DNA of 52,703 nucleotides, from NCBI GenBank assembly GCA_024762395.1, contig JANTHP010000001.1:1-52703 (forward strand). The letters are read 5' to 3'. The position numbers and the translations under genes were made by a program. Source of the stretch: Anaerolineae bacterium (GTDB lineage: Bacteria; Chloroflexota; Anaerolineae; Promineifilales; Promineifilaceae). Position 1 is the stretch's first letter. Each line of letters opens with the position of its first letter. Shown here piece after piece: positions 1 through 52,703 of the stretch. The notes below the pieces were generated by a model. That model was not told the origin of the DNA. It did not search any database and worked only from the letters and a program-made list of their open reading frames with translations.

Positions 1-1551
1 TTGGCATTTGTCGCCATTGGCCGCACCAACGTGCGCATCATCCAGGCCGACATCGTTTACAAGCGCGGTAAGCCGTTTGATGAGCAGGCCAGCCGCAACC
101 GCGACCCGGAAGCCTGGAAAGTAGCGACGGCCGTTTACGAAAAAGCGCTTGATTTGGCCCCGGAAGAAGATTTTTACTACCTGTTCCTGGGGCGCGCTTA
201 CCTGGAGCAGTCCACCATCACGACCGATCCGGCCGAACAATCCGCCCTGCTCAGTAAAGCTGAAAAACGACTGCTTCGCGCCCGAGACATTAACCCGCTG
301 AACACCGACCATACCGCGAATCTGGCTCGTTTGAATACCCGCTGGTGGCAGCTCAGCAGCACAGACGCGGAGAAGCAGCAGCGGGTGGAAAAGGCTGCAT
401 TTTATTACGAAGAAGCCTTAGCCCTAAGTCCCCAAAATTCTATCATCCGCAACGAGTATGCCCGGCTGTCGTTTGATTTGATGCACAACTGTGAGCAGGC
501 CCTGGCTTTGTATGATGAGTCGGTAGCTATTGATCCGTATTTCACTGTCACTTATTTTGCCCGCGCCGATGCCTATGTTTCTTGCGCGGCCCAGGCGGAA
601 GGGGATGTGCAAACAAATTATTACGAACAGGCCGCCGCCAGTTTGGATGAGGGCCTGTCTCGTAATGAGGATAATGTGCGCGCCTGGCTGCAATTGGGGC
701 AGGTGCATCAGCAGTTGGGGCAGTATGATGAGGCTTTGACCGCTTATGAAGAGGCGCGCCGCCGCAATACGAACCAAATTCAGCCCTGGAACCTGGATTT
801 CTTGATGGCGAATGCGTATTTGCAGTCGGGCGATGAGGCTATGGCCCTGTCAATGGCGGAAACGGCGCTGGTATCCGCGCCTGATAATGCGAAGGGGCAG
901 ATTGAGCAGTTTATTACCCGGTTAGGCGGGCAGACTGCGCCGGAACCGGAAACGGCCGTACCCGCTGCCGAGTTGGGTGAGATGGTAGAGATGGGAGATG
1001 AACGGCCGTTAGCCGCCCTCAATCCCGCCGCCCGTAACAACTATTACGACGCCTACCCACCCACCGTCATAGACACCGCCAAAACCTACGAAGCCATCAT
1101 CACCGTTGCTGGAAAAGGAGCGCTGCGTATCCGCCTGCTGGATGATCAATCGCCGTTAACCGTCAACAACTTCGTCTTTTTGGCCCGGCAGGGTTTTTAC
1201 GACAACCTCAATTTCCATCGCGTCATTGAGGGGTTTATGGCGCAGGGCGGCGACCCGACCGGCTCCGGTTCCGGCGGTCCCGGCTACCAATTTGCCGACG
1301 AGACTGATAACGGTTTGCGCTTCGACCGGCGCGGATTGCTGGCCATGGCTAACGCCGGGCCTGGCACCAACGGCAGCCAATTTTTTATCACCTTTGCGGA
1401 AACACCCTGGCTGGACGGCAACCATACCATCTTCGGCGAACTGGTTGCCGGTGATGAGGTTTTGAGTATGCTTGAGCCGCGCGATCCCACAACGGCCGTC
1501 TCGCCCGGCGACATCATTGAACGCATAGACATCATCGAAGTAGCGGAATAG
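1..1551 (+). CDS. TPR-repeat protein fused to a C-terminal cyclophilin-type peptidyl-prolyl isomerase; 5' end probably cut by the window edge
   Basis: ORF is open from base 1. N-terminal TPR-like helices ([29 protein letters not shown]). C-terminal cyclophilin motifs [44 protein letters not shown]. Confidence 0.8.
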
Positions 1552-1599
1552 AAGCATCCGAAGGGGGGCAACCCCTCAGGATGCAAGCGTGGGATCATA

Positions 1600-50966: not shown

Positions 50967-52703
50967 ACCGCTGGCGCATCCCTTTGTTAGTATTGGCCTT
51001 GCTTTTGGCCGCTTTCCTGCGCCTGTGGCGGCTGGACGAGATGCCGCCCGGCCTTTACCACGACGAAGCGTACAACGGCCTCGACGCGCTTTCCTTGTTG
51101 GATGGCAAAACCTTCCCCCAGTTTTATGAAGGGTGGGAACTGTACGCCCAGGACGCCCACGCCGACAATCCACCCCAGGAAACGCGCTTCCCTTTGTTTT
51201 TTGAAGGCAATTACGGCCGTGAACCCGTCCACATTTACCTCATGGCCCTCTCCATCAAACTATTCGGCCCCACCCCCTTCGCCATCCGCCTCGTCCCCGC
51301 CCTTGCCGGCATCCTCGCCGTCCTCACAACCTATCTCGCCGCCAGCCAACTATTCACAATTCACAATTCACAATCCACAATTCACAATTCCATCCCCCTC
51401 ATCGCCGCCTTTGCCCTCGCCGTCATCTTCCCTGCCGTCCATTTCAGCCGTTTCGGCCTGCGCGTCATGCTCTTTTTGCCGGTAGAAACATTGGCCGTTG
51501 CCCTGTTTTGGCGCGGCGTAAATGGGAGACCTGCGAGGTTTGGGAAACCTCGCAGGTCTGATTTTGTTTGGTTTGCAGCGGCGGGGATTGTGCTGGGGCT
51601 GGGATTGTACGTTTACGCCGCCGGGCGCTTGTTCCCGCTCTTGTTTGTCTCCTTTGTGCCGGTTTGGTTTTGGCTGGATAGGGAGGCGGCGCGGCGTTTT
51701 TGGCGCCCGGTGGGGGTAATGGCGGCGGCGGCAGCAGCAACGGCCGTTCCCCTGCTCCTCTATTTTGCCCGTTACCCCTATTTTTTCTTCTTCCGCATCG
51801 CCTACGTTGCCAACAAAGGGAAGGGAACGGTGGCGGGCAAGCCCTGGCTGACCTGGCTGCTTAACGTGGGACGGGTAATTGGCGGCCTTTTCTGGCGCGG
51901 CGAAACCCATCTGCGGCACAATTTACCGGGACGGCCGTTTCTCGACCCCATCCAGGCCGTTTTCTTCATCATTGGGTTGGGGCGGGCGGCCAAAGAGCGG
52001 CTCAACCCGCGCATTATTTTCCTGGCTTTGTGGCTGCTCGTCATGCTTCTTCCCTCCATCCTCAGCGGCGACGCTCCCCATTTTGGCCGCATGACCGGCG
52101 CCGCCCCCGTCATCGCCATCTTCATCGCCCTCGGCGTCGCCGCCATTGCCGTGCGCATCACGCATCACGCATCACGTTTCACATTTTACGCATTCCTCCT
52201 CCTCGCCACCACCACCCTCACCGCCACCGCCTACTTCATCCGCTACGCCGACCACCCCCAACTCGCCGCCGACTTTTACCTGCCGGACTGGGAACTGGGG
52301 CAGATGGCCGCCGCGCAGCCGGCCGAATCCCAACTCTATCTCACCCCCACGCAGGAGGAGATGGCGACCATCTACTTCGCTCTGGCCGATCCGGAGCGGA
52401 TGAGCAGCTACTCTGGCGCTGGCGGCGCGATTCCGGCGGGCATTCCCGGCTTCCCTGCGCTCTATTTTGTGCGCCCGGATGATGCGGTTAGTTTGCAGAA
52501 TTTACAAGCGTGGTTCCCGGACGGCCGTACCGGAGCCGAGCAAAACGGTTTCATCCCCTTTGCCATTTCCGAGCGGGTGGAACGAGTTCCCCATCTTTCG
52601 CCGCGAGTTCCCCAATTCGGGGATAAAATCCGGCTGCTTTACTGGGCCGTAGACGAGCAGGCGGAGCGGCTGCGCGTGACGCTGGCCTGGGGGGCCGCCG
52701 CGC
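50963..52703 (+). CDS. GT-C fold (family 39/ArnT-like) membrane glycosyltransferase, type B, copy 2; 3' end beyond the window; not in the supplied ORF track
   Basis: I translated the sequence by hand from GTG 50963, which shares a GTGA overlap with the upstream stop. The frame stays open to the window end. [43 protein letters not shown]... parallels B1 (PPGLAQDEVLNAD). It contains two heptamer arrays and one palindrome in frame. Confidence 0.7.
   Translation, partial: [580 protein letters not shown]
51350..51391. repeat. period-7 array inside a CDS (CAATTCA-like x6, 42 nt)
   Basis: ctattca caattca caattca caatcca caattca caattcc, translated as [14 protein letters not shown]. Confidence 0.88.
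51528..51559. repeat. 32-nt palindrome inside a CDS (AGACCTGCGAGGTT-TGGG-AAACCTCGCAGGTCT)
   Basis: Perfect 14-bp arms, translated as [12 protein letters not shown]. The arms are related to the intergenic hairpin at 48597-48645. Confidence 0.85.
52154..52195. repeat. period-7 array inside a CDS (CGCATCA x3, CGTTTCA-like x3, 42 nt)
   Basis: cgcatca cgcatca cgcatca cgtttca catttta cgcattc, translated as [14 protein letters not shown]. Confidence 0.88.

Follow-up and report, generated by a model that had tools for sequence, protein, structure and literature searches.

The octamer ACGGCCGT, an 8-base palindrome, occurs 100 times in the stretch of Anaerolineae DNA analysed here (contig JANTHP010000001.1 of assembly GCA_024762395.1, a whole contig of a metagenome-assembled genome, 52,703 nt, hereafter the window). 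Our results support ACGGCCGT as a highly iterated palindrome (HIP) of a clade of Anaerolineae whose named members are Ardenticatenaceae, Promineifilaceae or Ca. Leptofilum. It is a HIP-type word in a second phylum, the counterpart of the cyanobacterial HIP1, with a new, added feature in its flanks. A force acting at the DNA level favours the complete palindrome, and it does so throughout the clade. A first-pass annotation of the window, made from the letters alone, had already picked out this word and read it as a HIP-like signal of the DNA itself. That reading was backed by the distribution over reading frames and spacers, the codon-preserving null models, the density, the retention of sites between genomes, the position of the deviating bases and the variants of sister lineages. 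What the annotation had missed was the effect on amino acids, the clade-wide spread and a strand-symmetric compositional switch at the sites.

The exact count of 100 copies coincided with the roughly 100 that had been counted by hand, and the earlier expectation of one or two copies was matched by 100 dinucleotide-preserving shuffles, which averaged 1.03 copies and never gave more than 4. Markov models of orders 0, 1, 2 and 3 predicted 1.05, 1.15, 2.1 and 3.8 copies, respectively. The excess in the window was 96-fold, at a density of about 1900 copies per Mb (1.9 per kb). When the palindromic 8-mers of the window were ranked, ACGGCCGT came first with 100 copies and the runner-up reached 6, while the other top 8-mers were mostly overlaps of ACGGCCGT. 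Many copies had been described as extended, and the forms AACGGCCGTT (n = 28) and AAACGGCCGTTT (n = 6) were indeed found. Under Markov models of high order the observed/expected ratio (O/E) of ACGGCCGT fell to 2.3 (order 5) and 1.1 (order 6), numerically within the range of 1-3 that the annotation had named as speaking against its own proposal. Because the conditioning 6- and 7-mers exist almost solely as parts of ACGGCCGT (ACGGCCG occurs 117 times in the window, 100 of them inside it), this test is circular and hence uninformative.

As to placement, 95 copies lay within 32 of the 47 open reading frames (ORFs) called in the window and 5 in intergenic DNA, corresponding to 1.96 and 1.17 per kb, respectively. 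The spacing over the 52 kb was Poisson-like (coefficient of variation 1.02), and no regular spacing, clustering or tandem structure was seen. The codon phases were 44/29/22, read as T-A-V, [DNHY]-G-R and x-R-P-x. Confinement to one reading frame or one repeat family, which would also have spoken against a DNA-level word, was contradicted by the three frames, 32 genes and 5 spacers. Shuffling synonymous codons within genes left 11.2 ± 3.1 copies of the word and shuffling the codon order left 1.6, against 96 observed, so codon usage or a protein motif as the cause of the excess was rejected; the earlier statement that the word is not a protein motif thus stood. The synonymous null is as high as 11 because the peptides encoded by ACGGCCGT are themselves in excess. 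The tripeptide T-A-V occurred 46 times against 6.4 expected, with 7-11 occurrences for each of its five permutations, and 44 of the 46 were spelt with ACGGCCGT; [DNHY]-G-R was found 35 times against 10 expected. The O/E of T-A-V was 7.8 in the window, 4.8 in relatives of the clade and 1.5 in outgroup Chloroflexota. The force on ACGGCCGT overrides synonymous codon choice and fixes conservative replacements (Ala/Ser/Gly/Ile to Thr-Ala-Val; Lys to Arg).

Relatives were sampled as about 20 kb around valS from ten genomes with 75-91% ValS identity to the window. The ValS of the window itself showed 71% identity to the best species representative (an Anaerolineae genome) and 75-93% identity to proteins of genomes labelled Ardenticatenaceae, Promineifilaceae, Ca. 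Leptofilum or Chloroflexota. In nine of the ten relatives ACGGCCGT was the commonest 8-base palindrome, and in the other (L326) it ranked second; the densities ranged from 0.44 to 1.9 per kb, 20-97 fold above expectation. The relative at 71% ValS identity carried four copies in 13 kb, and fifteen more distant Chloroflexota loci had at most three each, near expectation. NCBI, ENA, JGI and Logan assemblies, which are independent of one another, carried the same word at the same codons. Two lineages differed in the outer base. In L333 (ERZ25072999:ctg322026, a 4.4 Mb contig, GC 46%) the non-palindromic ACGGCCGA/TCGGCCGT was dominant, with 29 copies versus 10 of ACGGCCGT; CGGCCG occurred 53 times against 3.2 expected, and the outer base was relaxed from A to A/T (WCGGCCGW). 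In L323 (GCA_046753445.1, GC 58%) the outer base was A/G (RCGGCCGY), with 30 copies of ACGGCCGC/GCGGCCGT, 19 of ACGGCCGT and 16 of the NotI site GCGGCCGC. Metagenome and IMG/VR contigs were scanned for pairs of ACGGCCGT copies separated by 5-35 nt; many fragments were retrieved in this way, with densities of 2-6 per kb, and some of them were mobile-element- or phage-like.

The origin of the sites was followed in a codon alignment of nine valS genes, and their retention in all orthologous genes shared with eight partner loci. Alignment of orthologues had been proposed by the first-pass annotation as a check on how sites arise, and it showed them created by point substitution, usually with an amino-acid change and almost without indels: no valS site coincided with an alignment gap, and a single site stood opposite a gap across all orthologous gene comparisons. 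Sites of the window were present at the same position in the partner in 47% of cases, against 15% for control 8-mers, and where the amino acids were identical the retention was 80% against 30%. At unshared sites the aligned 8-mer usually differed at 3-4 of 8 positions, and 58 of 67 comparisons of lineage-specific sites involved an amino-acid difference; in valS, such sites coincided with the changes PAAVV to PTAVV, HGKK to HGRK and IAAI to ITAV. ACGGCCGT is therefore created in place by point substitution and not by insertion. Insertion of a mobile mini-element was rejected on the same grounds, together with the lack of any rise in divergence in the flanks of lineage-specific sites.

The specificity of the word was resolved on 195 kb pooled from eight genomes of the clade. 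ACGGCCGT occurred 284 times there against 4.6 expected (62-fold). Its outer-base variants ACGGCCGN had O/E values of 2.5-6.9, CGGCCG with neither outer base was 1.5-3 fold enriched, in the same range as GC-rich control words, and internal one-base variants stayed near background (O/E 0.3-2.1). Single-base deviations from ACGGCCGT were thus concentrated at the first and last base. Outside the octamer a weak extension of each half-site was seen (consensus GGNA|ACGG), and the two half-site flanks varied independently, the observed pairing being equal to the marginal expectation. The DNA folding energy of the site with 20 nt on either side was -6.17 kcal/mol, compared with -6.17 for random flanks and -5.99 for chimeric arms. 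A hairpin or cruciform at ACGGCCGT was ruled out by the flank pairing and by the absence of surplus folding energy. Hence, with independent halves and no excess folding energy, the symmetry argues for a dimeric protein that reads duplex DNA, not for a hairpin.

A compositional switch surrounded the sites. In the roughly 30 nt 5' of ACGGCCGT on each strand, the frequency of G was 0.35-0.5 and that of C 0.15-0.2, whereas controls matched for phase and taken from the same genes had 0.28 and 0.29, respectively. The 3' side was the mirror image of this G-rich, C-poor 5' side irrespective of gene orientation, and the C depletion on the 5' side of each strand reached to about -30. The surroundings of site 11372 (11342-11409) may serve as an example, with the G-rich 5' flank ttcggtggggggga, the word, and the C/T-rich 3' flank tcctttccc. 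The switch occurred at complete sites only. It was absent from either side of 7-of-8 sites, from CGGCCG without A..T flanks, and from other GGCC, GCGC, CCGG or GATC words. A by-product of G|C-type words or of coding phase was rejected, as the phase-matched controls, the other palindromic words and the 7-of-8 sites all lacked the skew. At orthologous positions where one genome alone carried the word, the GC skew of the flank was +0.25 to +0.29 with the site and +0.08 without it. The difference was a net loss of C (C to G 149:54, C to T 137:55 in orthologous pairs); these pair counts are non-independent, one site being compared with several partners, and their direction was consistent throughout. 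As C to G was as frequent as C to T, simple cytosine deamination is insufficient alone to cause the skew, and the change points to a compositional preference over simple single-strand deamination. The flank may be a requirement of the reader or the mutational footprint of an event at the site.

We consider it fairly probable that ACGGCCGT is a HIP-type word kept by the DNA-level force through a symmetric protein reader. The reader would be a two-fold symmetric, probably dimeric, sequence-specific protein that is resident in the clade and binds duplex ACGGCCGT. It would recognise CGGCCG as an invariant core, with outer bases drifting from lineage to lineage (A..T, W..W, R..Y) and with the weak GGNA extension, and it would prefer, or cause, the C-poor 5' flank of about 30 bp on each strand. 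By analogy with HIP1, the likeliest reader would be a DNA-methyltransferase-linked system that marks its own DNA for a repair or recombination step, and sites might accumulate as alleles carrying the word are favoured by that step or by selection for it. The methyltransferase link of the reader, taken alone, is proposed more tentatively, and we would not be surprised if it proved wrong.

Several observations weigh against a resident reader of this kind. Pfam searches found no methyltransferase, restriction or Vsr gene among the called ORFs of at least 99 residues in the window, and C5- and amino-methyltransferase motif scans together with phmmer found no reader gene in about 0.6 Mb of word-rich related DNA. 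When approximate sequences of M.HhaI, M.HaeIII, Dam and Vsr were compared by phmmer with 16,589 ORFs of all loci, the one match lay on an unrelated 68% GC phage contig with 3 sites. As one contig of the source genome was scanned, the missing gene is not evidence of absence. The specific one-base-off neighbours of ACGGCCGT showed no clear depletion, unlike the prediction of strong conversion of the very-short-patch type. Because the spacing is Poisson-like, it lends no support to a spacing-dependent function. No flank skew beyond position -4 was detected at 98 HIP1 sites of the Nostoc plasmid pCC7120alpha, the one plasmid sampled, and the mechanism at ACGGCCGT may therefore differ from that of HIP1. 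The model of Elhai, in which the outer G/C of HIP1 is explained as creating G-meC, is not directly transferable since the outer bases of ACGGCCGT are A/T. Finally, selection and an ongoing mutational or conversion drive cannot be told apart by the conservation of site positions.

Other explanations were weighed against the same observations. The word might tag own DNA for uptake or recombination, either in the manner of the Haemophilus uptake signal sequence (USS) and the Neisseria DNA uptake sequence (DUS) or as a palindromic, orientation-free Chi, and spread by drive; the G/T-rich, C-poor 5' flank would then be the 3' single-stranded tail that loads RecA once the site has been nicked or broken. 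With 1-2 copies per kb, a location in weakly constrained protein regions and skewed peptide frequencies, the word shows the hallmarks of uptake sequences; Redfield and colleagues reportedly described uptake sequences with such density, weak-constraint location and peptide effects, and a G/T-rich composition is said to be preferred by RecA (Tracy and Kowalczykowski). The flank preference reaches beyond the core, the composition switches on the strand that would form the 3' tail and at complete sites only, and mobile-element- or phage-like contigs carry the word at host-like density. HIP1 provides precedents: its methylated sites promote recombination as well as transformation, the latter up to 100-fold and 'in a manner reminiscent of Chi', and Kamoku and Nielsen propose a Chi-like role for HIP1 (bioRxiv 10.1101/2024.09.10.611283), and an uptake-signal role has also been proposed (bioRxiv 10.64898/2026.06.24.733823). 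Such a drive agrees best with the effect on the proteome, with the preference in the flanks and with the presence of the word on mobile elements. However, the known uptake sequences and Chi are asymmetric and the excess of Chi is modest, competence is not known for the clade, the net flank change (C to G as much as C to T) indicates a compositional preference, and the flank effect is gone by about 30 nt, far shorter than typical resection tracts. We regard this possibility as serious but rather doubtful. A functionless by-product of biased repair appears unlikely. In this case a CGGCCG-type methyltransferase together with mismatch nicking or very-short-patch repair, like Dcm/Vsr of E. coli, would ratchet the word up as an 'epiphenomenon' in the sense of Elhai. 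One-base deviations at the outer positions are what a ratchet predicts (PMC4390886), and the Poisson-like placement, the lower density in low-GC3 (third codon position GC) genes, which were probably acquired recently, and the word on resident mobile elements agree with it; the flank asymmetry could even be a footprint left where short patches of 10-30 nt are repaired 3' of a nick on each strand. On the other hand, an excess of 60-100 fold is far above the effect of Vsr on CCWGG in E. coli, and the T-containing neighbours are not depleted (pooled clade O/E 2.1 for ATGGCCGT/ACGGCCAT and 0.85 for ACGGCTGT/ACAGCCGT). Besides, lineage-specific sites differ at 3-4 of 8 positions rather than 1, the word persists across the clade at 75-91% valS identity, and phmmer with the approximate queries found no Vsr or methyltransferase gene in the loci compared.

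The word as binding site of an abundant nucleoid-associated or chromosome-organising protein, with the flank as the DNA-shape need of a footprint of about 60 bp, seems improbable to us. Dimeric DNA-binding proteins typically have symmetric half-sites with graded information and independent flanks, as seen here; the flank signature is all-or-none (present at complete and absent at 7-of-8 sites), and sites are conserved between genomes. Yet parS, NBS, SBS and matS sites number tens per genome, not thousands, and are not known to rewrite proteins; the short-range spacing is random, and 52 kb is shorter than one HIP1 period of 10-90 kb. An artefact or ordinary cause (protein motif, codon bias, dispersed repeat or mobile element, assembly or sequencing error) can practically be dismissed. 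Some copies are common to paralogues (two cyclophilins, three histidine kinases) and the high-order Markov O/E is near 1, but the Markov result is circular. Moreover, the word occupies three frames, both gene orientations, 32 genes and 5 spacers against codon-preserving nulls of 1.6-11; no valS indel, only one gap site overall, no hairpin and no tandem structure accompany it, and the independent assemblies agree on word and codons. Returning to a protein reader of the duplex word, we offer one more specific version as a speculation that is, on balance, unlikely to hold in full: the unit could be a strand-symmetric element of about 60 bp, left by, or needed for, nicking or breakage at a specific site and the short resection or repair patch that ensues. 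ACGGCCGT would then initiate repair or recombination as a palindrome that marks own DNA, and it would have evolved independently of HIP1. If this were true, comparison of gene content between word-rich and word-poor genomes of both phyla could identify the HIP machinery.

Among known systems, HIP1 (GCGATCGC) of cyanobacteria is the closest to our word. Its over-representation ranges from 15 to 300 fold and its density from about 500 to 2500 copies per Mb (PMC4390886, PMC5861425), its deviations are likewise biased to the first and last base (Elhai 2015, PMC4390886), and its variants TCGATCGA and GGGATCCC differ in the outer bases by symmetric changes (PMC4390886, PMC5861425). A cognate methyltransferase accompanies HIP1 and each of the alternate HIPs (PMC4390886), and the core of HIP1 is a target of methylation by such an enzyme. 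Xu et al. 2018 argued from conservation for selection on HIP1, favoured a chromosome-organising reading and described a periodicity of 10-90 kb. Both words are GC-rich 8-bp palindromes that occur in all frames and in spacers, are conserved beyond codon effects, and combine a 6-bp core (CGATCG in HIP1, CGGCCG here) with drifting outer bases. As is usual for HIPs, ACGGCCGT is the top palindrome, its fold excess and density fall within the HIP range, and it is dispersed, retained and deviates at the outer bases. It differs from HIP1 in the word itself, the phylum (Chloroflexota, Anaerolineae) and its A/T outer bases. Bare CGGCCG was only 1.5-3 fold enriched here, and on the Nostoc plasmid 98 of 103 CGATCG lay inside HIP1. 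The G-rich, C-poor 5' flank of about 30 nt at complete ACGGCCGT sites was not seen at the 98 Nostoc HIP1 sites. HIP1-free cyanobacteria possess alternate HIPs (GGGATCCC, TCGATCGA, GGCGCC, rCCGGy and GCsGC, as well as CAGGCCTG in Synechococcus PCC 6312), which resemble our case as lineage-specific palindromes with symmetric outer-base variants (compare WCGGCCGW in L333 and RCGGCCGY in L323). Those are sporadic single-genome cases in one phylum, whereas ACGGCCGT is common to a family- or order-level clade (all ten sampled genomes).

The likeness to USS and DUS lies in about 1 copy per kb, the use of several frames, the location in weakly constrained regions, the peptide effect and the flanking preferences. 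However, uptake sequences have an asymmetric core of 9-12 nt, which a competence receptor of naturally transformable species recognises in one orientation, while ACGGCCGT is a perfect palindrome in most lineages, only L333 favouring the asymmetric ACGGCCGA. Competence is not known for the clade, and no competence genes were present in the window. Chi is also a short over-represented word with a G/T-rich 5' side, but it is asymmetric, co-oriented with replication and in few-fold excess, in contrast to a perfect palindrome at 60-100 fold. The EagI/XmaIII site (CGGCCG) equals the invariant core of ACGGCCGT, and the NotI site accumulates in L323. Restriction targets are normally avoided in host genomes; a restriction-modification target would thus be avoided or at background, and ACGGCCGT is about 100-fold enriched. 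We know of no enzyme with ACGGCCGT specificity. Repetitive extragenic palindromes, bacterial interspersed mosaic elements and miniature inverted-repeat elements are dispersed palindromic repeats in very many copies as well. They are intergenic hairpins of 30-150 bp spread by copying, while ACGGCCGT is 95% genic, arises by substitution and shows no folding excess. In the literature searched, which covered subscription journals thinly and so leaves absence unproven, we found no description of ACGGCCGT or of any iterated palindrome in Chloroflexota, and the HIP literature found concerned cyanobacteria only.

HIP1 has been known for about 30 years, and it is still debated whether it is a repair by-product, an element of chromosome architecture or an uptake/recombination signal. 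The finding is of interest because it provides an independent system for testing this question. The ACGGCCGT clade with its word-free outgroups constitutes a phylogenetically independent data set on genes that travel with such words, and the natural variants (A..T, W..W, R..Y) let the recognition residues of a candidate reader be checked for co-variation. The strength of the force is visible in the proteome, where T-A-V is about 5-8 fold over-represented in the clade, and the flank asymmetry is a new and testable mechanistic clue. In practical terms, ACGGCCGT could serve as a binning marker for the clade and link mobile elements to hosts of this clade; it should be further pointed out that, if methylated, it is a known risk motif for long-read basecalling.

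The 100 copies start at the following positions of the window: 127, 952, 1002, 1492, 1813, 2527, 3009, 3422, 5803, 5820, 6836, 6965, 7480, 8864, 9008, 9409, 11286, 11372, 11495, 12310, 12391, 13880, 14219, 16781 and 17877; 18385, 18431, 18543, 18678, 19271, 19565, 20423, 20845, 21233, 21768, 22206, 22457, 22572, 22710, 23015, 23169, 23431, 24249, 24594, 24728, 25938, 26118, 27067, 27088 and 27313; 27470, 27812, 29760, 30078, 30165, 30232, 30394, 31174, 31319, 32116, 32889, 33397, 33588, 33801, 33868, 35767, 36261, 38180, 39306, 39530, 40224, 40482, 42166, 42445 and 43617; and 43676, 44157, 44633, 44746, 45353, 45620, 45835, 45857, 46085, 46389, 46459, 46606, 47552, 48735, 49247, 49263, 49384, 50210, 50487, 50740, 50957, 51213, 51740, 51931 and 52521.

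Individual sites illustrate how the word is accommodated. At 6836-6843 in valS (QTAVSD), the word was kept in all nine orthologues while adjacent synonymous positions varied. The site at 6965-6972 (GDTAVAV) was kept in seven of nine, one close relative having ACGGCTGT and the outgroup ACCGCGGT. At 7480-7487, in frame 3 (NIRPW), the peptide was conserved and the word spelling was found in only three of nine orthologues. The site at 8864-8871 (PTAVV) accompanies a difference of Thr versus Ala or Pro, since orthologues without it read PAAVV, PPAVV or PPPVV. The peptides that the first-pass annotation had read at such places were all recovered: QTAVSD, DTAVAV and PTAVVQ in valS; E-R-P-L, spelt GAA-CGG-CCG-TTA, at 1002-1009 in the first cyclophilin gene and at the paralogous position 3009-3016 in the second; and N-G-R, spelt AAC-GGC-CGT, at 16781-16788 on the minus strand of ftsH, the sole site of that gene. 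Its five non-coding copies (5803, 5820, 9008, 18385 and 18431) were exactly the five outside the ORF set. Two of these stand 9 bp apart at 5803-5827 (GGAAACGGCCGTTTCCAGTTGACGGCCGTTCCCC), with an unannotated ORF on one side and the valS T-box leader on the other; one lies at 9008-9015, between the valS stop codon and a Phd/PIN toxin-antitoxin module; and two (18385-18392 and 18431-18438) lie downstream of a Ser/Thr kinase gene. The word is also tolerated across a gene junction, because the copy at 50957-50964 reads GAA-CGG-CCG-TGA (E-R-P-stop) at the end of the gene 48666-50966 and overlaps the predicted start (an unchecked codon) of the ORF called at 50963, which runs off the contig end.

The genes of the window were ordinary chromosomal ones, including valS, ftsH, ffh, rpsP, rimM, cyclophilins, histidine kinases, glycosyltransferases and toxin-antitoxin pairs. 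Pfam annotation, which covered most of the 47 ORFs, revealed neither a methyltransferase nor a nuclease among them. ACGGCCGT was densest in poorly conserved membrane and glycosyltransferase-type genes, with up to 8 sites each, and sparse in low-GC3 ORFs (the toxin-antitoxin pairs and the stretch 3775-5791) and in very constrained genes (ftsH). The T-box leader (Rfam RF00230, 110.6 bits, full length) occupied 5864-6097 (+), directly upstream of valS (6284-8950), and the copies at 5803 and 5820 stood just upstream of it, at the expected promoter location. The genes for tRNA-His(GTG) at 19798-19873 (+) and tRNA-Arg(TCG) at 19956-20029 (+) were both without the word. The stretch 3775-5791 comprised four ORFs with GC3 of 0.43-0.53 and not one copy in about 2 kb, and for this reason it may be a recently acquired island; its two large ORFs gave no Pfam match, the remaining two encoded 70 and 74 residues, and other genes occupied the same position in the relatives examined. 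Three type II toxin-antitoxin modules were present, namely Phd/PIN at 9059-9750, a MazF/PemK toxin with a small upstream ORF at 12519-13093, and a PIN toxin with a small ORF at 17350-17999. Their GC3 was 0.36-0.53, they held 2 copies of the word in total, and the Phd/PIN pair was conserved beside valS in two relatives (L322, L324).

Four sensor kinase genes followed one another at 29175-36159. Three had kinase domains of the HisKA_2/HWE type, two of them with a HisKA_7TM N-terminus, and the fourth, a hybrid, combined receiver, PAS and HATPase domains. The word stood at equivalent positions in three of the paralogues (30165, 32116 and 33801). On the minus strand at 13224-15191, between a lysA-like gene and ftsH, a 655-residue protein was encoded, whose only domain match was a sub-threshold GAF. 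It was syntenic with 70-79% identity in four relatives (L321, L324, L325 and L331), and it is an uncharacterised, clade-specific protein.

Beyond the chromosomal loci, the mobile-element- or phage-like contigs (L218, L272, L201, L140 and others) carried ACGGCCGT at 3-4 per kb, a chromosome-like density. L218 encoded ParA, RadC, a P22 antirepressor domain, SLT and an FtsK-like protein; L272, ParB and a PAPS-reductase-like protein; L201, an IstB/DnaC-like ATPase; and L140, baseplate J and tail proteins. A second apparent HIP, CTGGCCAG in an Anaerolineaceae metagenome-assembled genome (L007; 11 copies at 2957-4394), was traced to a tandem repeat of 126 bp within a coding region and rejected. In an unrelated phylum, at a locus of the Bacillota strain Desulfofundulus thermosubterraneus DSM 16057 (L017), ACGGCCGT occurred six times, dispersed over 19 kb, where shuffles predicted 0.3, a modest excess.

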